64,000 nucleotides of DNA from a virus. The DNA lies in the IMG/VR virus record IMGVR_UViG_3300045995_000065, positions 8,237 through 72,236 of that record; one strand, written 5' to 3'. Below, piece by piece: positions 2,827-64,000 of the stretch; positions within the stretch are counted from its first letter, which is position 1; each line of letters starts with the position of its first letter. A program made the translations under genes and the position numbers. The notes beneath the pieces are model-generated. The model saw only the letters and a program-made list of their open reading frames with translations. It had not been told where the DNA came from and did not search any database.

Positions 2827-3744
2827 TTATGGCGAGCGCACTAAATCTAACGTAACGCAATGGAAGCCACCGCCCAACGTGCGTGAATGACGCAATTCAA
2901 GGGGAATAGATTCAATTTTGTACTTCTTTAGTGTTTGCATTAACGATGATTGTTTTTTATCTACTATTACCAAATTAGGATTGACCACTAGCATGTTCAT
3001 GGCAATCCATTTGCTTGCGTAAGGATACTCGTAAAATTGTTGCGGGACTACATCAGAATGTGACACCCAAATCTTTTCCCAATTTTCAAAAGCCTTAGGA
3101 ACAGTTGTTGGATGCACACGGGATGCATTGAGCATTACGAGACCTTCACGTAGCGGCACTATAGTAGAGTCAATATGTACGCCGCTGTAAAAGTTACAAG
3201 TTTCTATTGTAACATGGGGGAGGATGCTTTGCAACCAGTCAGCAGCCGCTTTGTTGCCACTTGCGCTTTCCAGCACGACATAGGTGTCATTTAGTCTGCA
3301 TACGTTAGCAGCATCAAGAACCATACCTTTGTTGCGCGGCATTTCGTAAACTACGCCACGCTTAGTGACATCTTTGAGTGCTCTGGTTTCCATGTCCCTG
3401 CATGGATACATCATTACTGGGTCAATGATCTTTGTGCCCGCAATGAGCAGCCTGTCTCGCGGACAGTAATTGTACATACCACCTTCATAACCAAAGTCCA
3501 TTTCTGCGGGACGCAGGACTTCTACGCCAAGGTTGCGAAGTGTGGTTGAGAGGGTTTCTAAGTCCTCGTTTGATTCGTCAACAACGTGCTTAGGTACACG
3601 ACCAGACGGAACAGGAGTTTCGTGCCAGGTTGTTTTATATTTTTCTTCAGCAAAGACTGGATCTTTGGTGGGCCAATGTGCGTGGGTGGCATCACCTACT
3701 ACGCAAACTTTAAGAGGGTCCCATTCGTTGTGTGAGTGTATCAT
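2827..3744 (-). CDS. Amidinotransferase (glycine/inosamine-phosphate amidinotransferase family)
   Basis: N-terminal EWDPLK..VVG, CPRD, DAAN, HIDST and C-terminal GGGFHCVT catalytic Cys motif. Confidence 0.9.
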   Translation of the reverse strand: MIHSHNEWDPLKVCVVGDATHAHWPTKDPVFAEEKYKTTWHETPVPSGRVPKHVVDESNEDLETLSTTLRNLGVEVLRPAEMDFGYEGGMYNYCPRDRLLIAGTKIIDPVMMYPCRDMETRALKDVTKRGVVYEMPRNKGMVLDAANVCRLNDTYVVLESASGNKAAADWLQSILPHVTIETCNFYSGVHIDSTIVPLREGLVMLNASRVHPTTVPKAFENWEKIWVSHSDVVPQQFYEYPYASKWIAMNMLVVNPNLVIVDKKQSSLMQTLKKYKIESIPLELRHSRTLGGGFHCVTLDLVRSP

Positions 3745-3986
3745 TCGTATTTCAACTTTGCCCAGAGGCGGTGAGTTTCGTTTGGTATATGGAAGCTTGC
3801 ACAGTTTCCCTTTTCGTCGGTCCAGTGGTTAAAGAACTCTGCTTGCACTTTTTGCATTTCGCACCAATGGTGAAATTCATCAAACCATGCTGTAATGCCA
3901 TCACGATCGCAGTTCATTTTAGCCACTATTATTTCGTGAGTGGGAACATTTAGTCGAAGCTCAAATGGCGTTAATGTCATCGCCAA
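3741..3986 (-). CDS. Small hypothetical protein (W-C...F..E...LK[YW] family)
   Basis: Overlapping start/stop with both neighbours; shared C-terminal pattern. Confidence 0.55.
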   Translation of the reverse strand: MAMTLTPFELRLNVPTHEIIVAKMNCDRDGITAWFDEFHHWCEMQKVQAEFFNHWTDEKGNCASFHIPNETHRLWAKLKYE

Positions 3987-4495
3987 CCTGTAATTTGCAG
4001 TGTGTAGCGATCTTCTTCGCCTAAGTTAGCCGCAGCATGTGGTGTGTCGTATTCCCACCACGCAGTTTGTCCAGCTTTCCAATCAACGATTGGTTTGCCA
4101 TTTACTTCGGAGTAATGACCGCTTTTCCAATCTTCTAGGAATACCACGGCACGATTGATTCTGTGTTCGGCTCCAGCGAGACTATGTAGTTGAATATATT
4201 TGACATATAGATCAGAGTGATTTGGCATGACGGTGCCAGTGGCCATACGGTAATAAGAAGTCCCAACATTTTTCCATCCCATTGCTTCAAAGATTTTAAT
4301 AAACTTTTTGTTCCAACTTGGCTGCTCTGAGCGCATATCGCACATAGCACCTGTGATTTTGTCGCTGTAACCCATTGCGAGCCACCTGCGTACACTCTCC
4401 TGGTCGTTAAACGGCTCGTGTATGTAATCTAAAGATTTAAATTCGTCGTCCCAAAATTTTGGGAGCATGAATTTATTTGATACGTGTGTTGCCAT
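3977..4495 (-). CDS. 2OG-Fe(II) oxygenase
   Basis: HxD (NHSD), distal H (PHAAAN) and R (RYTLQITG) of the double-stranded beta-helix dioxygenases. Confidence 0.75.
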   Translation of the reverse strand: MATHVSNKFMLPKFWDDEFKSLDYIHEPFNDQESVRRWLAMGYSDKITGAMCDMRSEQPSWNKKFIKIFEAMGWKNVGTSYYRMATGTVMPNHSDLYVKYIQLHSLAGAEHRINRAVVFLEDWKSGHYSEVNGKPIVDWKAGQTAWWEYDTPHAAANLGEEDRYTLQITGWR

Positions 4496-5708
4496 AATGG
4501 ATCACCTTAATGTTTTTGTTTGTGGATGTATAAGTACGCCACGGATCAACCACAATGCTTCCGTCGTGTATGTCACAGTAGACACCTTGCTTTTGTCCAC
4601 CTGCGTAACCGTAAGTTACGTTGGCATTATGCGCCAATAAAACTACACCAACTACTGGCTCAGTAGCGATATCGTTTGTTAACGGATCAACATAGAATGG
4701 CTTTGTGCCTGTTAACTGCTCTATGTAATGTCCTACTAGCAAGCTATACGACCCATCAGTGTACGACACGTTAGGCTTGTATGCTTTGCCGTGTATGAAG
4801 ATAGGCAAGTCATTGAATGCTGCTTTTTTAACCAGGAACAAAGCAAGGTTCTCTGCTTGAATTTCTCTGGCATGCATAATTGCGTCAAAGAGATCGTAAC
4901 CTAAATTCAACTGCTCTGCTAAATGCCTTAGTGCAATGTTGTCACGTGGGTGGCAGGGCCCGGCATCTCCCATCCCTGCGGTCATGTACTTGGGACCCAT
5001 TATCCGCATCGTACTTTTTGCGAGCGCTGTGGTAACTACATCTACATTAATGTTACCTTGTTTGATGGCCACATCTTGAATCATGTTGGCTAAACCAATC
5101 TTCGCGCTTATATAAGTGTTGTAGAACACCTTAATGCACTCTGCTTCGTCCCACGTTCCAACCTCGTAGCGAGGATCGTTTTGCATGATGGGCTTATAGA
5201 AGTCAATAAGCGTCTTAGCATCACCAGTCAACGATCCATCCTCTGTTCCTATGATGACCATTTCTGGATTAACCATATCCCACGCAACTGATCCCATTGC
5301 GATTAGGTATGGATTGTAAATAAACTTTGCATTATAAATGAGTGGTTGCAACTCACGGCGAACTGTACCTGGTAGCACAGTGGAAATGAGCACTACTAAC
5401 TGATGCGACAGTGCAACTTTGTTGATTTCGAATAAAACATCTTTAACTGTCGCGTAATCAAAGTCTTTGTTTGGTAAATGGGCAATTGGTGCTGAGCCAT
5501 CGTAAGCAGGATCGTGCGGCGTTTGCACTGCGACAAAAATGATATCTTGCCCCAAAACGGCTTTGTGCAGTTTGTTAACGATATTAATCTTGTCACTTGT
5601 CTTGGGGTAAATATCGTAACCAGTAACATTATAGTGCTCGCCCATTGCTTCTGCACATGGCATGCCTAACTTACCAATTCCAATAAACCCTACATTTTTG
5701 ATTTCCAT
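4473..5708 (-). CDS. UDP-glucose/GDP-mannose dehydrogenase family protein
   Basis: GFIGIGKLG Rossmann motif, AVQTP, STVLPGT, KVFYN, AGPCHPRD catalytic Cys, GKAYKPN. Confidence 0.9.
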   Translation of the reverse strand: MEIKNVGFIGIGKLGMPCAEAMGEHYNVTGYDIYPKTSDKINIVNKLHKAVLGQDIIFVAVQTPHDPAYDGSAPIAHLPNKDFDYATVKDVLFEINKVALSHQLVVLISTVLPGTVRRELQPLIYNAKFIYNPYLIAMGSVAWDMVNPEMVIIGTEDGSLTGDAKTLIDFYKPIMQNDPRYEVGTWDEAECIKVFYNTYISAKIGLANMIQDVAIKQGNINVDVVTTALAKSTMRIMGPKYMTAGMGDAGPCHPRDNIALRHLAEQLNLGYDLFDAIMHAREIQAENLALFLVKKAAFNDLPIFIHGKAYKPNVSYTDGSYSLLVGHYIEQLTGTKPFYVDPLTNDIATEPVVGVVLLAHNANVTYGYAGGQKQGVYCDIHDGSIVVDPWRTYTSTNKNIKVIHYGNTRIK

Positions 5709-57951: not shown

Positions 57952-58172
57952 ACTGCTATTATAGCATTTTACGCATATAAAGTACACGGAAATGGTGTAG
58001 CAAACACAGTAGTTTACTGGTGAGCAATGCCATATAAGTATTTACACGTACTACTCAAAAGTAAAGGCGCAAAAAGGCGCCCTTACCCCTTTGGTTGTAG
58101 TGCTTGGGCTTGTATTCTATTTCACTTCTTAATTTTAGTAGAATGCAAAGTTACAACAAAGGAAACTTATTG

Positions 58173-58661
58173 ATGAAAAAACTATCACTATTATTTATTG
58201 CCGTTTTAATGGCAAGCGGCGTTTATGCTGCGAACACAAACGGTGAATTGAAATTTAACGGCAATCTAGCCGAAGCTTGCAACTTACAGAACTTCGTCGA
58301 CGGTACGATTACTGCTGACATTTCGGAAACAATCTTAAGCACATCTCAACTTGGTGGTATCGCTGCTACGGTTGGCATTCGTGCTAACGCGAAGAAGTAT
58401 TCGTTAGTATTGGGCACACCAGTAATGGCAGGCCCAAATGGTAACGAAACTGACGTTACATTTGCGTTAGATCCAATCGGTACTGGCACCGACTTGAAGG
58501 GTGTACCAAAGGCAAGTTTTGGTGCTGTAAGTGGCGTTATGAACTTTGACGCTGGCATTTACACAATCACAGTCAATGGCACTGCAACCAAGAACATTGG
58601 TGCATTTGAAGCAGGTACTTATACTCTACGTGTTCCAGTAACATGCGTAAAAGCACCTTAA
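58173..58661 (+). CDS. Secreted fimbrial-subunit-like protein
   Basis: Signal peptide MKKLSLL...VYA; F.G.L...C N-terminal strand; C-terminal AGTY...V..TC. Confidence 0.65.
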   Translation: MKKLSLLFIAVLMASGVYAANTNGELKFNGNLAEACNLQNFVDGTITADISETILSTSQLGGIAATVGIRANAKKYSLVLGTPVMAGPNGNETDVTFALDPIGTGTDLKGVPKASFGAVSGVMNFDAGIYTITVNGTATKNIGAFEAGTYTLRVPVTCVKAP

Positions 58662-59008
58662 TTGGCATTTGCTTGATGGGAATGGTGGCGTCTGCGCAAG
58701 CGGTTTCCATCTTTCCTAATCGTGTCACTGTAGAGGGTGTCGTCGGTGAGAGGGCATCCATACAGTTTAGAATTTACGGGCATCCTGAAAATGCATCAGT
58801 CGAGTTTGTAAAGGCAGAAGATCTGAGGTCAGAAAAAGACACAGTCCTTACTTCCTTTGAACTTGGTCAAGAGCAACAAAGAATTGTACCAGTCGATATA
58901 GTAGTTAATAGAACACAGGAATTTTACTTATGCGCAGTCTTAAAAAAATCACAATCTATGCGCTTGCGGGTTTGCTCTGCGGTGCGTGTTATAGTCAGTC
59001 CACGATGA
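58643..59008 (+). CDS. Secreted PapD/Ig-like chaperone-like protein
   Basis: Signal peptide ...ASAQA; SIFPNRV; F.LG..Q.R.V.V; LC...RVCS. Confidence 0.55.
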   Translation: MRKSTLIGICLMGMVASAQAVSIFPNRVTVEGVVGERASIQFRIYGHPENASVEFVKAEDLRSEKDTVLTSFELGQEQQRIVPVDIVVNRTQEFYLCAVLKKSQSMRLRVCSAVRVIVSPR

Positions 59009-59325
59009 TGCCATCCACCACCCAGTCAACTGTGGGTGGTGATGAAGTTAGGGCAAGGGACGGAACAACATGTAAGCAAGGTACCTACAATGGGCCTACG
59101 TTTGACACGGGCGTTAGCTCTGGCAGTGCAGGCACAGTTACGCTACCTGGATACACGACCACGCCTGGTTCTAATCAGACGCTGTATGCACGTATCGTTA
59201 TTCCATTCGGCAAAACGCCAGACCGTTTAGATTGCACCCGTCTGTATTCACTCGAGATTGAGCGTTTACAGTTAGAGATTGACAAACTAAAACAATCTGG
59301 CTCAGCGTCTATTACGATTAATTAG
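58930..59325 (+). CDS. Secreted protein with C-terminal coiled coil
   Basis: Signal peptide; D..RA.DG..C.Q; YARIVIP.G...R.DC..LY.LE. Confidence 0.6.
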   Translation: MRSLKKITIYALAGLLCGACYSQSTMMPSTTQSTVGGDEVRARDGTTCKQGTYNGPTFDTGVSSGSAGTVTLPGYTTTPGSNQTLYARIVIPFGKTPDRLDCTRLYSLEIERLQLEIDKLKQSGSASITIN

Positions 59326-59640
59326 GCCAGTCTCTGTACAGTGCGTGTTGGATAGTACCTGACACAAACTGGTTGAAGCTTTTGTGTTTGCTTTCCAATT
59401 CACCCTCCAAAGGTGCAACTCTATCAAATGCTGCATCAAGCTGTGCCATGTTATTGAACTCCATCATGATGTGCCATTCCGGAACATCCATACTACGGAA
59501 GCCCATCTTACATCGCGTAATGCGATACGATACCATTTTGCTTTCGGATACTAAATGATCCAAAAAGCCCTTCATATTGTTTACCCAATCTAAATCGGAT
59601 ATTTCGCCTTCTTTGTCTGCCCAAATATGATAGATGTCCA
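59318..59640 (-). CDS. Small ferredoxin-fold-like protein (DUF6614-like)
   Basis: DIYHIWA...RITR.K.GF...EWHIMMEF...QLD.AF...ALYRDWP. Confidence 0.55.
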
Positions 59641-60558
59641 TTATTGTCCTAATATTTTGTTAAATTCTGGTTCAATTATACCAGCGATCAATTGATGCCC
59701 ATACTCAGTGGGATGGTGGCTATAAGGGTTCAGTATTTTTCTGCCCACCAAAAAGTCAACCCTATTAGTGTCACTAATCCAGGACGACTTATGTGGAGTG
59801 GTATCGAAAGTTTCCATACCATTCAATATTGCTAACTTTGAAAGTAAGTCTCTTGGGTTTTCATTTTTAAAAAGTAAGTTATTGATGGTTGGACGACCGT
59901 CATAAATTTTTGTTGTGTCTGATTGGATGAATAAGTCAGCAGCATCCTCTACTACCACCCCGCTGACGAAATCTTCATATGACGGCCAATCAGTGCCAGC
60001 CAATTGCAAATATTTCTGCCTACTGGACCATAATGAATGTTGTTGATATTCATGGTGGTCAAACGTGTCAAACCACATATTTTTTATATTCTTGGCTTGG
60101 AAGTATTCATTCCAGTGCAAGATCTCAGTTGCCAACTCATCAATAGCAACATCTCTGTCGTAATGAAACTTAGTGTAGATTTTTGCAATTCCATCTTTGT
60201 CGTGCAAATAAGCAGTATCATACAAACTAGTTTGCAAGTTATACACTTCTATTCGTGCTGTGGTTGTTATTCCCCACATTACAATAATATTGGAAAATTC
60301 TGCCTGTAATTTGGCAAATTCATTGGATACAAAGAAATTTCGAGCAATACGAAATTGCATTTGATTGCTACAACCACCCGCTGCCAAATTTTTGTTGACC
60401 ATCCCAAATTTGGAAGCAATCAATGCACTAAAAGTAACATGAGCAAAATTTGGTGACCATGCTATTTTTTTATATTGACTTTCAGTCATACCATCTTTGT
60501 AACCTGCACCAACCCCCACAGTCCAACTGCACCCAAATGTTATAAGTAAGGTGCTCAT
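59641..60558 (-). CDS. SGNH-hydrolase-like protein
   Basis: FGCSWT.G, NLA..GCSN, HHP..GH; AT-rich. Confidence 0.7.
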   Translation of the reverse strand: MSTLLITFGCSWTVGVGAGYKDGMTESQYKKIAWSPNFAHVTFSALIASKFGMVNKNLAAGGCSNQMQFRIARNFFVSNEFAKLQAEFSNIIVMWGITTTARIEVYNLQTSLYDTAYLHDKDGIAKIYTKFHYDRDVAIDELATEILHWNEYFQAKNIKNMWFDTFDHHEYQQHSLWSSRQKYLQLAGTDWPSYEDFVSGVVVEDAADLFIQSDTTKIYDGRPTINNLLFKNENPRDLLSKLAILNGMETFDTTPHKSSWISDTNRVDFLVGRKILNPYSHHPTEYGHQLIAGIIEPEFNKILGQ

Positions 60559-61682
60559 TTGGGAAAATAGTTTTTCTTCGTGCCTTCGCGGTGGATGTCA
60601 CTAGTAATACAATGCAACCCACCATCCCAGAAATAGCGATGCCTAAAATTAAGAACATGAGGAGTTATCCCGCGTTTTTCAAACGCATCAAATACTTCTT
60701 TATTGTAATTATTGCAAACAACATTTTTCTCGTCAATGACTAGCATGTTTACATCAAAGACCGTTTCTTCAACATAACCAACCCAGTGTGATAGCCATTG
60801 CTCTACGTAATCAGTAAAGTCGTCGTTTAGTTCCTCACCAGGAACCCACCACTTGCCACGATTTTTATTCTTGAGACCCAAAAATGATCCAACTTTGGCC
60901 CAGCTTTGCCCAGGCAAATATATGACCTCCCATCCCGGGAATGTTTCAGCGTAAGTTTGTATGTCATGTAAGCTTACAATCAACCCAGGTACAACTGGAC
61001 AAAAACTTCCATCAGTATGTCCGGCAGTTTTCACAATGTGATTGGTATACTCCCCACAATACATATTAACTTCGAGTTCATTTGCACATTCTAACTCGTC
61101 TGTCCCGTGAAATAAATCGTTGCCGACTCTACATGACATGGCAGAATTCAATGAGCTTCCAATTATTGAGTTTCCATGCTGTTTAATGTCAGTCAACATT
61201 TTTTCCCAGAATAGCTTCTTTGCAGTCATGCTTGCCATGAAGTCAATATCCCAGTTAAGCGTACCAATCATTTCATTTTTAACGGCCGTTGGCAATGATA
61301 ACCATTCGTCCATCGTAGTTGGGCACTCTGGCCAATCACTACCGTAGCATTCATTAAATCTTTTGTTGGGTATGTCAAACTCAGTGTGGAACACATTCCC
61401 TAGCATTATAGTGCTATCACGTGGGCACATCGGAGGTGTCATCATTTTACCAGATGGTAACATGGTCTGATCTAGCCGTATGTCAGGTCTGTATGTAGTA
61501 ACCCCAAAACTATTGAGTAATTTTACTAGTTTCTGATAATCTTCCTCTGTCTCAATTGCGACACGTTCCAGTACATTGCGCACCTTAGCGTTGGTAATAT
61601 AACTATAAAACTCAGGAGGATAGCTTGCACCCACTGCACATACTTTAAGTGGGTCCCAGTGCTGATAGACATTATACATCAT
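60555..61682 (-). CDS. Amidinotransferase (second paralogue)
   Basis: HWDPLKVC.VG, PRD, GHTDG, FDVN, WDGGLHCIT. Confidence 0.88.
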   Translation of the reverse strand: MMYNVYQHWDPLKVCAVGASYPPEFYSYITNAKVRNVLERVAIETEEDYQKLVKLLNSFGVTTYRPDIRLDQTMLPSGKMMTPPMCPRDSTIMLGNVFHTEFDIPNKRFNECYGSDWPECPTTMDEWLSLPTAVKNEMIGTLNWDIDFMASMTAKKLFWEKMLTDIKQHGNSIIGSSLNSAMSCRVGNDLFHGTDELECANELEVNMYCGEYTNHIVKTAGHTDGSFCPVVPGLIVSLHDIQTYAETFPGWEVIYLPGQSWAKVGSFLGLKNKNRGKWWVPGEELNDDFTDYVEQWLSHWVGYVEETVFDVNMLVIDEKNVVCNNYNKEVFDAFEKRGITPHVLNFRHRYFWDGGLHCITSDIHREGTKKNYFPK

Positions 61683-62106
61683 TCATTCCTAATTCTTCAT
61701 ATCCGTCAAATTTGGTTTTGTATTCTTCTGAGAACCCCAAGTACAAATACTTGTAGCCCAAGTGCTTATAAACTGAACATTCAGTCTCTATACTTTTAAT
61801 ACCTAGTCTTAGCTTGGGCTCTTTGTAGTCCCACGCGAACTGTAGACTTTCCACATTCTCATTATCGTATGCACGAAGCAAACTAAATGCAACCAGTTCG
61901 CCTGCATCATTGCAATACCCTAGTACATTGTTTGCTGGGTCAGTATATTGACTGTCAAATATAGGCATCACACCGTCAAAGTTTTTGTGTGCGCAGTACG
62001 CCTTAAAAATTCTCTTGAGATGCTCGACTGGCCTACCTTCTAACTCTACAAAATGCTTTGACAGGTGGTAGTTAGTCTTAGCTAGATTGATCCTGCAATA
62101 CTTCAT
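61672..62106 (-). CDS. Arginyl/leucyl-tRNA-protein transferase (ATE/Bpt) C-terminal-like GNAT
   Basis: LVAFS...QFAWDY..P.L.LG..S...E......GYKYLYLG....YK..F.G. Confidence 0.7.
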   Translation of the reverse strand: MKYCRINLAKTNYHLSKHFVELEGRPVEHLKRIFKAYCAHKNFDGVMPIFDSQYTDPANNVLGYCNDAGELVAFSLLRAYDNENVESLQFAWDYKEPKLRLGIKSIETECSVYKHLGYKYLYLGFSEEYKTKFDGYEELGMNDV

Positions 62107-62605
62107 TTTCTCTCCATTTGACTACCCATTCTAGATTCTTTTCGGACCATACATCGTAGTAGCCCTTGTCTTTCAACTTAGCTGATGCTTCATTGAGTTG
62201 GGTCAAGTATTGCACGAGCAACAATCCACAGTGATTGAAATTCATGCGTACACCAGCAATATACTCTTGGTAACCAGGGTGATCTTCTAGTACCACATAG
62301 TTACGTGGCATCAGTTCTGCATTAAACTTTTGCATTCTGCTTTCCAACTCTTCGGGTGTAATCTTTGTGTGATCAAAGCATACAGCGAATGCTTCTACTG
62401 CATTTTCACCTTCGAGTCTTGACAGCGCAAGTTCAACCTGATTCTCTAAATCGGCTGCTTCTGCGAACAGAATGATAATCTTGTTTTCGATTCTAGCTTT
62501 ACGTGCATACGGGCAAGGTGCCCAATTACCTAGCTGTGGGTTTGGCTTTTCAACAAAGTTGATCATCCAATCGTGCAATTGTTGTTTGATAAGTTCTTGA
62601 TCCAT
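62078..62605 (-). CDS. DUF1415-like protein
   Basis: W...FVE....PCPYA, DHP, L.L.Q; TAAGTA 4 nt upstream. Confidence 0.55.
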   Translation of the reverse strand: MDQELIKQQLHDWMINFVEKPNPQLGNWAPCPYARKARIENKIIILFAEAADLENQVELALSRLEGENAVEAFAVCFDHTKITPEELESRMQKFNAELMPRNYVVLEDHPGYQEYIAGVRMNFNHCGLLLVQYLTQLNEASAKLKDKGYYDVWSEKNLEWVVKWRENEVLQDQSS

Positions 62606-62616
62606 ACTGTACTTAT

Positions 62617-62642
62617 AACAAAACCCCTTGCGGGGTTTTGTT
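62617..62642 (-). terminator. Rho-independent terminator after NAMPT
   Basis: AACAAAACCCC-GCAA-GGGGTTTTGTT. Confidence 0.85.
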
Positions 62643-62659
62643 TTGTTGCCGTTTAGTGC

Positions 62660-64000
62660 TTACTTGTTACTGTTAGCACGTACTTCGTCGAATGTTTGGG
62701 TGAACTTTACTTCACCATCTTCGAAGTATGTTTCCAATGCTTCCTTCCAACCATCAGTACCTTTGTCGGTCCAACGGGTAAGAGGGTAAACCGCAGTCTC
62801 ATACTCACCACCGCTTTCCCAAAGAGTAACACGGCCCTTCTTAGAAGTCTTGCCTGGGTCAGTGATAGGGTCCTTATAAACACTGCGCCATTCGCCTCCA
62901 AAGCCATCGTCATTTTCTTCGCCAGTACGAATACCAATTGCACTGCACTTCATAGCGAACTTCAAGGTGTCGCGATCAAGTTGTTGAAGCAATCCACCAC
63001 CCATACCGAATGCAATGTTGTCAGCAGAGTAACCACATACATCCACGAAGACACGAAGGATGCTGCTTAGTGCAACGGAGTTGATCCCGTCTCCCCAGAT
63101 AATTCGGACATTATTGAGGACCTTGTAGCCTTTCTTATTTTCGACCGATCCGAAATGTTCCTCAAGGATTCGGGCCATCTTTGGAAGTACTTCAAGCGGA
63201 TCACCGCTATCCGGCCGCACAACAACAACAGAATTAGAATTGACCACATCATCTTTTAGCTCCGTCCCCCACATTTTGCAGGCGTTATAAATGTCGTAAC
63301 TATCAGAGACTACTGCAAGAACCTTGCCGTCTCCACCGAATTGCTTAACCATATTGCGGTAAGCATCTACTTCGTTTTCACGGCCCCAGGAAGTGATTGT
63401 GCTGTGTTCTGCGGCTGGGATACTGTATCCGCAGACGTCGCCGCCATAGGTATCCATAACATGCAGCACACCAGACATAGTATCCGTACCCATAAAGTTG
63501 ACAAGGTGCGCTGCTCCACCAATGCCGGCAGAATCCAAACTGCTGACACCGCGAGCACCAAAATCATGCAGCTTAAAAGATATTGTTGAAGGATCACCGC
63601 TCTTTTCCAAGTAGTTTAGGATTTCTTGCTTAATGTGCCACGAAGTAGTTCCGACAGTGGTGGGATACCAGATTGCGCGGAGCGCCGCTGTTTCCACCCA
63701 AGTGGTGAGCCAAAAACATTTTGGGTCCGTATTTTCAATTGTGCAGAGGACATTTTTAGTAGGTATGATGCAACCTTCTTTGGCGGCGCAAATCCGCAAA
63801 GGTAGCTTGCCATTGTGTACATCAAGAATATATTGCCAACCTTCGCGGTTGAAAGGCTCTCCATGTAGAGTCCAGATTTTCTCCGCATAATCAATTTGTT
63901 CTTGCGTGATTGGTGTTGCGAGATACTTCGCGAGCGCTTGGACTCCGAGAAATTCTGTTCGATCATATTTTCCACCTCTTGATTCGATATAAGAGTAAAC
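62660..64000 (-). CDS. nadV: Nicotinamide phosphoribosyltransferase (partial, start beyond window)
   Basis: YIESRGG, LHDFGARG, GTD, SIPAAEHS, VSDSYD, RPDSG, GDG, FGMGG, KDPITD.GK.SKKG; frame open to 64000. Confidence 0.96.
   Translation of the reverse strand, partial: VYSYIESRGGKYDRTEFLGVQALAKYLATPITQEQIDYAEKIWTLHGEPFNREGWQYILDVHNGKLPLRICAAKEGCIIPTKNVLCTIENTDPKCFWLTTWVETAALRAIWYPTTVGTTSWHIKQEILNYLEKSGDPSTISFKLHDFGARGVSSLDSAGIGGAAHLVNFMGTDTMSGVLHVMDTYGGDVCGYSIPAAEHSTITSWGRENEVDAYRNMVKQFGGDGKVLAVVSDSYDIYNACKMWGTELKDDVVNSNSVVVVRPDSGDPLEVLPKMARILEEHFGSVENKKGYKVLNNVRIIWGDGINSVALSSILRVFVDVCGYSADNIAFGMGGGLLQQLDRDTLKFAMKCSAIGIRTGEENDDGFGGEWRSVYKDPITDPGKTSKKGRVTLWESGGEYETAVYPLTRWTDKGTDGWKEALETYFEDGEVKFTQTFDEVRANSNK

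Follow-up and report, generated by a model that had tools for sequence, protein, structure and literature searches.

A phage gene module pairing an ATE-type GNAT with a probable thiolate-haem oxygenase, and its possible place in arginine and guanidino chemistry

The 64-kb window (the whole stretch of viral DNA that we analysed) contains five overlapping minus-strand open reading frames of 175, 144, 375, 305, and 107 aa, which we call g1 to g5. These encode a DUF6875/DUF1415-like protein that is probably a thiolate-haem oxygenase (g1, 62078–62605), an ATE_C-only GNAT that is a probable aminoacyl-tRNA transferase (g2, 61672–62106), a divergent amidinotransferase (g3, 60555–61682), a protein recognised as SGNH/GDSL-like by its motifs (g4, 59641–60558), and a DUF6614 protein (g5, 59318–59641). 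From the coordinates, the overlaps are 29 nt (g1/g2), 11 nt (g2/g3), 4 nt (g3/g4), and 1 nt (g4/g5), confirming the five-gene overlapping block described in an earlier note on this DNA. We found no terminator-like site on the minus strand within the block; the two sites found there are both on the plus strand. Upstream lies a NAMPT gene (62660–64000, minus strand; Pfam NAPRTase 2.3e-55, NAMPT_N 5.6e-14) that is truncated by the window end and does not belong to the module. The intergenic region (62606–62659, minus strand) carries a terminator-like 11-bp hairpin trailing NAMPT (–18 kcal/mol, z –4.1, with equally good folds in 0 of 200 shuffles) and the box TATAAGTA (62610–62617, minus strand), which lies 5 nt ahead of the g1 ATG. 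The TAAGTA element noted earlier is present, but the box is only mildly enriched (six copies of TATAAGTA versus 2.1 ± 1.4 expected and 49 of TAAGTA versus 33.2 ± 5.7, the observed number being reached in 1 of 100 shuffles in each case), and we therefore treat it as a candidate promoter box.

To define the conserved set, we collected 80 viral loci via g1 and scored its partners. We found g2 in 76 of the 80 loci, g5 in 53, and g3 in 44, while g4 and NAMPT were found in none. The genes occur in 14 different orders and orientations, and their sequences have diverged to roughly 35% identity; a g1–g2 association that persists through this degree of rearrangement and divergence, together with that of g5, is hard to explain other than by selection for co-inheritance. 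In the 76 loci g1 and g2 are adjacent, mostly overlapping or separated by 0–21 nt, although g2 is opposite in orientation to g1 in 16 of the 80 loci and genes intervene in a few. The commonest gene orders place g5 directly after g2, and within the flanks covered g5 was not seen in 27 loci. When identical copies were removed from a set of 93 loci, 75 remained, comprising 25 with all four genes, 23 with g1, g2, and g5, 14 with g1, g2, and g3, and nine with g1 and g2. In some loci, radical-SAM and methyltransferase genes border the module or break it up; the remaining neighbours that recur are structural and replication genes, and we saw no consistent link to any glycosyltransferase or DNA-modifying gene. 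Cellular genomes yielded three matches among 185,579 species, and searches of 50,697 GenBank phage records with g2 and g5 yielded none. We conclude that the module is essentially restricted to phages, that it is widespread in environmental phages, and that its conserved core consists of g1 and g2, accompanied usually by g5 and often by g3. The linkage proposed earlier for the GNAT, DUF1415/DUF6875-like, amidinotransferase, and DUF6614 genes is therefore borne out across many viral contigs in shuffled orders; the amidinotransferase is linked but not strictly coupled, since 44 of the 80 loci have it adjacent.

The SGNH gene does not share in this conservation. g4 had no sequence match in Pfam, NCBIfam, PHROG, or the PDB, and among its 83 relatives PF00657 was matched by one. 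Their alignment nevertheless shows SGNH motifs (a TFG[CD]SW block I, a GGSSN block, and an HP..GH block); N65, D164, and H282 do not vary, and at least 90% of the sequences have S11. Membership of the conserved set is not supported: g4 was detected at 60 bits or more in 0 of 80 module loci, and its family profile found distant SGNH-like ORFs in five of 93 loci, including one that is itself a profile member. g4 is a local accessory gene outside the conserved module.

g2 matches Pfam ATE_C at 27.2 bits (cut-off 25). Its family comprises 126 representatives, including forms of 225–275 aa that carry ATE_C without ATE_N by Pfam, match PF13480 weakly as well, and have an N-terminal extension and a C-terminal tail missing from g2. 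The description of a 144-aa GNAT with only the C-terminal ATE half is thus upheld, whereas Ate1 (∼500 aa) and Bpt (∼235 aa) carry both ATE_N and ATE_C. The g2 family profile matches Kluyveromyces lactis Ate1 (7wfx, 8.6e-8), and residues S87, W92, S105, E109, L121, Y129, and K130 of g2 correspond to S255, W260, S273, E277, Y289, Y303, and K304 of Ate1 as described in PMC9351520. The catalytic Tyr-Lys pair and the Trp of the GNAT core are therefore shared, and conservation within the family is high for Y129 (31/31), K130 (29/31), and E109 (27/31). Three of the four arginine-pocket residues of Ate1 are kept, while the fourth, L121, is a Leu as in Bpt; Glu277 of Ate1 binds the Arg side chain, and its equivalent is Gln in the Leu-specific Bpt (PMC9351520). 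The same source places the acceptor pocket for acidic N-termini in ATE_N (Arg80, Tyr25, and Tyr87 in klAte1) and describes the functionally known family members, Ate1 and Bpt, as modifying proteins. Because g2 has no ATE_N, it lacks that pocket. We regard g2 as a probable aminoacyl-tRNA transferase, likely using Arg-tRNA.

g1 falls under the Pfam DUF6875 cut-off (21 bits versus 24.5), but 22 of 25 g1 relatives match DUF6875 weakly (E ≤ 1) and four match DUF1415. DUF6875 therefore fits better than the DUF1415 label given earlier, although the structural neighbours of g1 in the Atlas (TM 0.80–0.82) are DUF1415 as well as DUF6875 clusters. The AlphaFold2 model of g1 is confident (pLDDT 90), and AglA was the sole chain among 48,161 to match it at Z ≥ 5 (Z 7.1, 157 residues aligned); five AglA entries gave Z 7.1–7.8 over 149–157 residues, and the next match was 3.9–4.0. 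Aligned with hhalign to four bona fide DUF6875 proteins, a family that includes the cytochrome P422 tryptophan hydroxylases, the g1 family gave 82% probability (E 1.1e-5) over 39 columns covering the N-terminal helix, Cys-Pro loop, and first strand, and placed Cys31 on Cys46, the haem-ligand position according to bioRxiv 10.64898/2025.12.11.692455. C31, P32, D108, H109, and P110 are invariant across the g1 family. The resemblance is incomplete: the YqcI_YcgG profile did not match g1 at E ≤ 0.1, neither the Arg nor the Gly spacing of RxGxVCP, the haem motif of P422, is retained, and the P422 substrate-binding motifs named in that preprint were not detectable in g1. The protein is also some 50–70 residues shorter than AglA or P422 and may therefore be missing the substrate-gating part. 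We found no 2Fe-2S ferredoxin in the record containing the window or in any of four near-complete module-carrying genomes, so a redox partner for g1, if any, would be supplied by the host. In cultured cyanophages and Roseobacter phages, g1-like genes are found alone, with no g2. g1 is probably a thiolate-haem oxygenase of the AglA/P422 fold, with haem bound through Cys31.

g3 had no match in Pfam. Its similarity to the PDB chains of AGAT, HsvA, StrB1, and SxtG (phmmer, 3e-8 to 1e-6; AGAT 2.8e-8 to 1.3e-6) is limited to the last ∼65 residues, but it shares with these enzymes a C-terminal catalytic Cys, a His, and two Asp. Cys358, His222, and Asp224 fall on Cys407, His303, and Asp305 of AGAT, and each of R88, D89, H222, D224, H357, and C358 is retained by at least 95% of 44 family sequences. 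The second amidinotransferase that the earlier note called divergent is real (2827–3744), but g3 is the more divergent of the two; the second copy matches StrB1 at 1.2e-61, adjoins sugar-nucleotide dehydrogenase-like and cupin genes, and is the canonical StrB1-like enzyme, in what appears to be a separate sugar-related set. Both copies match phrog_25854 (2e-11 for g3). Related phage genomes carry several paralogues of the g3 family, and all five larger genomes without an adjacent g3 have g3-like genes elsewhere. For g5, the DUF6614-like label is confirmed (Pfam, 1e-23). It has relatives in 1124 clusters, none of the top 120 falling below 79% identity, and its median identity across loci is 75%, compared to 42–50% for its partners. 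Although its AlphaFold2 model is poorer (pLDDT 67.7, with residues 75–107 badly modelled), Foldseek matched dimeric ferredoxin-like proteins, OAC cyclase, MLMI, YgiN, and ABM (E 4.5e-3 to 0.1, probability 0.93–1.0), and the predicted fold is dimeric α+β-barrel-like. The protein contains an invariant basic loop. To our knowledge, characterised amidinotransferases and the catalytic α+β-barrel relatives of g5 act on small-molecule substrates.

The closest precedent is the argolaphos pair AglC and AglA of Streptomyces monomycini. As described in PMC12866846, AglC produces AMPn-Arg in a reaction supplied with Arg, ATP, ArgRS, and tRNA, and AglA, a YqcI/YcgG thiolate-haem enzyme, then N-hydroxylates the guanidine. 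By analogy, the phage module would likewise encode an aminoacyl-tRNA-dependent GNAT next to a non-P450 haem hydroxylase that is small and Cys-ligated, and would centre on arginine and its guanidino group. A YqcI/YcgG protein is also listed beside GNAT “peptide aminoacyl tRNA ligases” in the alp cluster (PMC8976061), and it is on the cluster table in that paper and the assay recipe in PMC12866846 that we base the placement of AglC among tRNA-dependent GNAT transferases. The parallel has limits. The alp protein is a 342-aa PF13480 member while g2 is of the 144-aa ATE_C type, g1 stands nearer to DUF6875/DUF1415 than to AglA's own family, and the phage module is phage-borne, adds an amidinotransferase and DUF6614, and lies in a record in which we found no phosphonate genes.

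We consider it unlikely that the module instead modifies a macromolecule, with g2 arginylating a host protein or g5 itself and g1 and g3 then altering guanidino or amino groups there. Protein substrates are the rule for known ATE-family members, and restriction to phages is easier to reconcile with host takeover than with the making of an antibiotic. The far greater conservation of g5 fits a scaffold, substrate, or binder of conserved host machinery, and its basic loop and its position after g2 point the same way. On the other hand, g2 lacks the domain holding the acidic-N-terminus pocket, g5 goes unseen in a third of the loci within the flanks covered, and the substrates that the sources describe for AglA and P422 are free amino acids or small derivatives. 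The g3 relatives known to us are similar in this respect.

The target could also be a nucleic acid, or a glycan of the virion or cell surface (tRNA, phage DNA, or an amino sugar, for example), in place of any free metabolite, but this seems to us improbable. In its favour, tRNA binding is required of g2, the StrB1-like gene of this phage lies in its sugar-related setting, amidinotransferase paralogues and radical-SAM or methyltransferase neighbours recur in related genomes, and a cyanophage amidinotransferase is reported in a virion proteome (PMC12801897). The recurrent neighbours, however, do not include a consistently linked glycosyltransferase or DNA-modifying gene. Nor are we aware of any ATE-type or AglA-type enzyme with a nucleic acid or glycan as its substrate. 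We give slightly less credence again to the suggestion, made in the earlier note, that g1 supplies the missing half of g2, as an acceptor-binding or structural subunit of an obligate complex rather than an oxygenase. The close pairing of the two genes and the absence from g2 of the extension and tail of its longer relatives would suit such a split transferase, and the invariant Cys-Pro and Asp-His-Pro of g1 could serve non-haem chemistry, but g1 has a complete fold of its own that matches AglA over at least 150 residues and no part of Ate1, its affinities by Pfam and hhalign are with DUF6875/DUF1415, its invariant Cys falls on the haem-ligand Cys, g2 may be inverted or separated from it, and g1-like genes occur without g2 in cultured phages. 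Finally, the five genes could be unrelated “moron” genes lying side by side: phage accessory regions are mosaics, g4 and NAMPT are not conserved neighbours, and g3 is separable. For g1, g2, and g5, however, the linkage largely refutes this reading, and we think it very improbable.

It is reasonable to read the block, as the earlier note did, as a pathway of tRNA-dependent aminoacylation. We tentatively favour, at a little under an even chance, a phage biosynthetic module that performs arginine and guanidino chemistry on a small amine-bearing acceptor. Several observations count against this reading: the conservation of g5 is atypical of a tailoring enzyme, near-absence from cellular genomes is unlike ordinary natural-product clusters, the functionally known ATE-family enzymes act on proteins and not on small molecules, and the assignment of g1 is weakened by its sub-cut-off DUF6875 score, lack of a YqcI_YcgG match, incomplete RxGxVCP, and 39-column alignment. 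The absence of a 2Fe-2S ferredoxin, the Bpt-like L121, and the lack in the record of acceptor-making genes such as PEP mutase count in the same direction. In the small-molecule pathway that we favour, g2, an ATE-type GNAT cut down to its aminoacyl-tRNA-binding catalytic domain, would form an amide between an amine acceptor and the residue carried by a basic aminoacyl-tRNA, for which host Arg-tRNA is the likeliest candidate; the acceptor would differ from the acidic protein N-terminus on which Ate1 and Bpt act. As a Cys-ligated haem protein, g1 would hydroxylate the product, with a guanidino nitrogen as the likeliest site, and g3 would take an amidino group from arginine and pass it to an amine, either making the acceptor or adding a second guanidino group. 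The small α+β-barrel protein g5 may be a tailoring enzyme or binding partner, and in this phage only, g4 may add or remove an acyl or ester group. We postulate that phages carrying the module would thereby make an arginyl or guanidino conjugate that is probably N-hydroxylated.

The five-gene block lies in a record of 72,236 bases that CheckV rates as 20% complete, in a window that also encodes a ribonucleotide reductase, a DnaB-like helicase, tail fibres, and a UvsW-like helicase and in which we found no tRNA genes. ORF listing and the overlaps between frames confirmed the block as the earlier note had described it, all on the minus strand: g1 (62078–62605, 175 aa), g2 (61672–62106, 144 aa), g3 (60555–61682, 375 aa), g4 (59641–60558, 305 aa), and g5 (59318–59641, 107 aa). 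From g1 to g5, successive genes overlap by 29, 11, 4, and 1 nt, and no terminator-like site was found on the minus strand within the block. Upstream of g1 stand, in order, a NAMPT gene, an 11-bp hairpin (–18 kcal/mol, z –4.1), and the box TATAAGTA, which stands 5 nt before the g1 start. Because enrichment in the window is mild (six observed versus 2.1 expected for TATAAGTA; 49 versus 33 for TAAGTA), we treat the box as a candidate promoter. Another TATAAGTA box, at 58033–58040, precedes the first of three overlapping plus-strand ORFs (58104–59325; 185, 121, and 131 aa) that converge on g5, the last of them overlapping the g5 3′ end by 8 nt. These three ORFs have signal-peptide-like N termini, no Pfam match, and one weak PHROG match only.

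The main correction to the earlier reading concerns g1, which we compared with two recently described haem enzymes. AglA is a YqcI/YcgG-family enzyme with a Cys44-ligated haem that N-hydroxylates the guanidine of aminomethylphosphonate-arginine (PMC12866846); in a preprint, DUF6875 proteins are renamed cytochrome P422 and presented as tryptophan hydroxylases with a Cys-ligated haem and an RxGxVCP motif (bioRxiv 10.64898/2025.12.11.692455). The AlphaFold model of g1 is confident (pLDDT 90), and a structural aligner matched it to five AglA entries at Z 7.1–7.8 (149–157 of 175 residues aligned, rmsd ~4 Å), the best non-AglA match reaching Z 3.9. By the same aligner, the model has the AglA-type sandwich fold, in which helices flank a sheet of four strands. 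When 48,161 representative chains were scanned independently, AglA was the sole match to g1 at Z of at least 5. The likeness comes solely from the aligner and this wide chain scan, not from Foldseek, which returned nothing for g1 in the PDB at E ≤0.001. The g1 family sequence profile likewise found no AglA chain in the PDB at E ≤10; its matches there, YbgC and mitofusin among them, were all at chance level. With the YqcI_YcgG profile, the record gave nothing at E ≤0.1, and three control genomes did give matches.

The relationship to DUF6875 is closer in sequence. The g1 protein itself scores 21 bits against the Pfam profile, below the gathering score of 24.5 and over profile positions 2–55 only, and among 25 family members 22 matched DUF6875 (best 5.9e-6) and four matched DUF1415 at E ≤1. 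Profile–profile comparison by hhalign with four cyanobacterial genes that are bona fide DUF6875 placed Cys31 on the motif Cys (82% probability, E 1.1e-5); the 39 columns aligned are N-terminal and leave the P422 substrate-binding motifs SBR1–3 outside the compared region. Within the motif, Cys-Pro is invariant and aligned with the ligand Cys; there is no Arg, and the Gly lies one residue out of place. Across the family, which numbers 593 relatives and is represented in 508 of 599 matched viral stretches, Cys31-Pro32 and an Asp-His-Pro are invariant. The nearest structural neighbours of g1 in the Atlas (TM 0.80–0.82) are DUF1415/DUF6875 clusters, so that the earlier label of DUF1415-like was not far off; the family counts favour DUF6875. 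The score below the Pfam cut-off, the lack of a YqcI_YcgG match, the missing motif Arg, and a length 50–70 residues short of AglA and the P422 enzymes all argue against full membership of g1 in either group. We infer that g1 binds haem.

The earlier note was correct that g2 has only the C-terminal half of an ATE-family transferase: ATE_C matches at 27.2 bits (Pfam cut-off 25), ATE_N gives no match, and the protein begins at the start of the ATE_C-side core. Searched against solved Ate1 arginyltransferases, the g2 family profile gave E values of 8.6e-8 to 2.4e-6, with klAte1 (7wfx) at 8.6e-8. Exhaustive search yielded 126 representative relatives, some of ~145 aa like g2 and others of 225–275 aa; alignment shows that g2 is without the N-terminal extension and the C-terminal tail of the longer ones. 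Of ten longer relatives scanned against Pfam, all match ATE_C (nine at or above cut-off), none matches ATE_N, and three have a weak PF13480 match. In the klAte1 structural study, catalytic roles are assigned to Lys304 and the adjacent Tyr303, the Arg-specific pocket is formed by Ser255, Ser273, Glu277, and Tyr289, with Glu277 binding the arginine side chain and replaced by Gln in the leucine-specific Bpt, and the ATE_N pocket that accepts acidic N termini is formed by Arg80, Tyr25, and Tyr87 (PMC9351520). We mapped the residues named there by the printed profile alignment, which places Ser255, Trp260, Ser273, Glu277, Tyr289, Tyr303, and Lys304 on g2 S87, W92, S105, E109, L121, Y129, and K130, respectively. 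Three of the four pocket positions are thus Ate1-like and one (L121) is Bpt-like, and among 31 family members Y129 is conserved in 31, W92 in 30, K130 in 29, and E109 in 27. We conclude that g2 is a predicted transferase that has retained the catalytic core together with a pocket mostly of the arginine type and that, in contrast to Ate1 and Bpt, is without the domain recognising acidic protein N termini. A 2955-aa repeat protein, P0142, also matches g2 residues 42–83 in ten stretches (E 6e-21), probably as a repeat artefact or an unrelated shared motif.

For g3, no Pfam or NCBIfam profile matched at E ≤1, and phmmer matched its last ~65 residues only to PDB chains of the amidinotransferases AGAT, HsvA, StrB1, and SxtG (3e-8 to 1e-6). 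Cys358 of g3 aligns with AGAT Cys407, and His222 and Asp224 with His303 and Asp305, the AGAT numbers resting on an offset derived from the PDB chain alignment; these are the catalytic Cys, His, and Asp. At least 95% of 44 family members share each of R88, D89, H222, D224, and C358, and g3 thus has both the Cys-His-Asp set and the substrate-binding Asp residues expected of an amidinotransferase. In five larger genomes of 182–374 kb that have no adjacent g3 (G202–G206, the genomes of loci L044, L083, L038, L069, and L087), g3-like genes occur elsewhere in all five, often as several paralogues, with one to three outside g1-g2-g5. The window holds a further set on the minus strand at 2827–5708, where a StrB1-like amidinotransferase (PDB 1bwd, 1.2e-61) adjoins a cupin Asp/Arg-hydroxylase-like ORF (3977–4495) and a UDP-glucose/GDP-mannose dehydrogenase-like ORF (4473–5708). 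This looks like a separate set that amidinates a sugar or aminocyclitol; a 61% identical copy lies 2 kb upstream of g1 in locus L025.

For g4 we found no Pfam, NCBIfam, PHROG, or PDB sequence match, and one of its 83 relatives carries PF00657. The four SGNH signature residues (block I Ser, II Gly, III Asn, V His) can be assigned to g4 from sequence: across its relatives S11 is conserved in at least 90%, and N65, within a GGSSN block, is invariant, as are H282 and P283. Most members have Cys where block I usually has Asp, and conservation does not extend to the Asp of block V. A database copy of g4, P0247, is called 13 codons shorter (292 aa); since that start would remove the conserved TFGCSW block, translation more likely begins at the ATG that overlaps the stop codon of g3 (ATGA). 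The g5 protein matches DUF6614 (PF20319) over its full length at 84 bits against a cut-off of 25 (E 1e-23). Its model, fair for residues 1–74 only, resembles dimeric ferredoxin-like alpha+beta-barrel proteins (E 4.5e-3 to 0.1, probability 0.93–1.0), among them cyclases, isomerases, and cofactor-free monooxygenases. DUF6614 clusters in the Atlas are almost wholly viral, and g5 has 1124 protein clusters, the best 120 of which are all at least 79% identical. Across loci L016–L095 g5 is much better conserved than the genes beside it: median identity to the window proteins is 42% for g1, 47% for g2, 50% for g3, and 75% for g5. The g5 protein (window 59318–59641) has an invariant basic loop (R40, R43, K45, and R49). 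We gave no weight to an "anti-Druantia" mention of DUF6614, which is a domain prediction for an ORF of another phage only (bioRxiv 10.1101/2024.04.14.589459).

Through g1 we found 80 viral loci, each taken with flanks of 6 kb. These contained g2 in 76, g5 in 53, and g3 in 44, in 14 different gene orders or orientations; g4 at 60 bits or more and NAMPT were found in none of the 80. Adding loci found through g2 and g3 gave 93 loci, 75 of them non-identical, with the gene sets g1g2g3g5 (25), g1g2g5 (23), g1g2g3 (14), g1g2 (9), g1g3 (2), g1g3g5 (1), and g2 alone (1), some absences being due to contig ends. These counts identify g1 and g2 as the core, usually with g5 and often with g3. A g4-family profile detected distant SGNH-like ORFs in five of the 93 loci, including one that had contributed to the profile itself. 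In the module, g4 is a local addition. Variable insertions occur in or beside the module (L010, 5138–5998; L012, 5105–6004 and 8479–10580; L004 and L097, downstream of g3). They include a methyltransferase-like ORF between g1 and g2 with weak Methyltransf_3 and PrmA matches, flanking ORFs with radical-SAM-type Cys motifs, and runs of ~200–245-aa paralogous ORFs, one without a Pfam match.

The module is real, widespread, and essentially confined to phages, its carriers including complete or nearly complete genomes of 316–374 kb. Scanning one genome for each of 185,579 cellular species with a g1 alignment gave three loci only, two on small MAG contigs and one in Oscillatoria sp. PCC 10802. The Oscillatoria chromosomal locus (L098, 5986–6700) has a lone g1 homologue of 37% identity and a 45-aa g2 remnant on the opposite strand, adjoined by panB-like and haemagglutinin-like repeat genes, and is probably a decayed phage-derived insertion. 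Among 50,697 GenBank phage records, tblastn found no match to g2 or g5, which is how the module escaped study, and megablast with the g1–g5 block found none in GenBank phages. Lone g1 relatives, 25–30% identical, occur there in 23 records (duplicate accessions included) of cyanophages and of Synechococcus, Prochlorococcus, and Roseobacter phages, beside hypothetical genes, a 2OG-Fe(II) oxygenase, and a methyltransferase. In one of them, the cultured Cyanophage S-RIM32 (L104), the g1-like frame at 4001–4396 of the locus is only partly covered by an annotated CDS (4202–4420) and may be mis-annotated or decayed. We found no description of the module in the literature; relatives from phages or of the DUF1415 type may already be listed in the supplements to the P422 preprint and the AglA paper.

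The best precedent for g2 with g1 is argolaphos biosynthesis, in which the tRNA-dependent ligase AglC is paired with AglA. There AglC makes AMPn-Arg from arginine with ATP, ArgRS, and tRNA, and this product is the one whose guanidine AglA hydroxylates (PMC12866846); a cluster table in another report places YqcI/YcgG beside GNAT "peptide aminoacyl tRNA ligases" (PMC8976061). The enzymes of the module belong to known superfamilies, as very divergent members, and its logic is that of a bacterial pathway already known. By this analogy, g2 would arginylate an amine acceptor with Arg-tRNA as donor, g1 would hydroxylate the product, g3 would supply or add a guanidino group, g5 would tailor or bind, and in this phage g4 might handle an acyl or ester group. 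Those relatives of g3 that have been characterised, and those of g5 that are catalytic, are known to act on small molecules. The substrates described for AglA and P422 are free amino acids or small derivatives (PMC12866846; bioRxiv 10.64898/2025.12.11.692455). Such relatives favour a metabolite over a protein target, and a metabolite is our leading reading of the product, held by analogy at a little below even confidence. Several points count against it: proteins are what the known ATE enzymes modify; the conservation of g5 is that of a protein under many constraints; neither the record nor any of four near-complete carrier genomes encodes a ferredoxin; the record has no PEP mutase profile match and acceptor-making genes are not evident; and the module is nearly absent from bacteria, unlike ordinary biosynthetic clusters. 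The D-cycloserine route suggested a product of the hydroxyurea type, which we considered and rejected: nothing arginase-like is linked, and the phage has its own class I ribonucleotide reductase.

The first two of those points count in favour of a protein-directed version of the module; set against the small-molecule relatives and the absence from g2 of the Ate1 domain for acidic N termini, we consider it unlikely. A nucleic-acid or glycan acceptor seems to us quite improbable. The earlier note had proposed a split enzyme in which g1 perhaps supplies the half missing from g2; that half is indeed missing, g1 instead resembles AglA, and the co-fold score of the pair (0.01 against a mark of 0.32) counts neither for nor against binding, and we give this idea even less credence. 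That genes so regularly linked have no common function is scarcely credible.

We tentatively propose, as a scheme that is doubtful when taken whole, that many uncultivated aquatic phages, including jumbo phages of 316–374 kb, divert host Arg-tRNA in the course of infection through a minimal transferase of the ATE type, together with thiolate-haem hydroxylases of a new phage clade, to form an N-hydroxyguanidine arginyl conjugate, free or on the highly conserved DUF6614 protein, for host takeover, counter-defence, or competitor killing. If true, this pathway would be the first of its kind encoded by a phage: tRNA-dependent, amide-forming, and non-ribosomal. The module offers natural minimal versions of two biochemically interesting enzyme types, an ATE core of 144 aa and an AglA-like protein of 175 aa, and gives a testable phage role to DUF6614, DUF1415, and DUF6875-like proteins. 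If our reading is right, a compact phage pathway uses charged host tRNA outside translation and couples that use to a recently recognised non-P450 class of haem hydroxylases.
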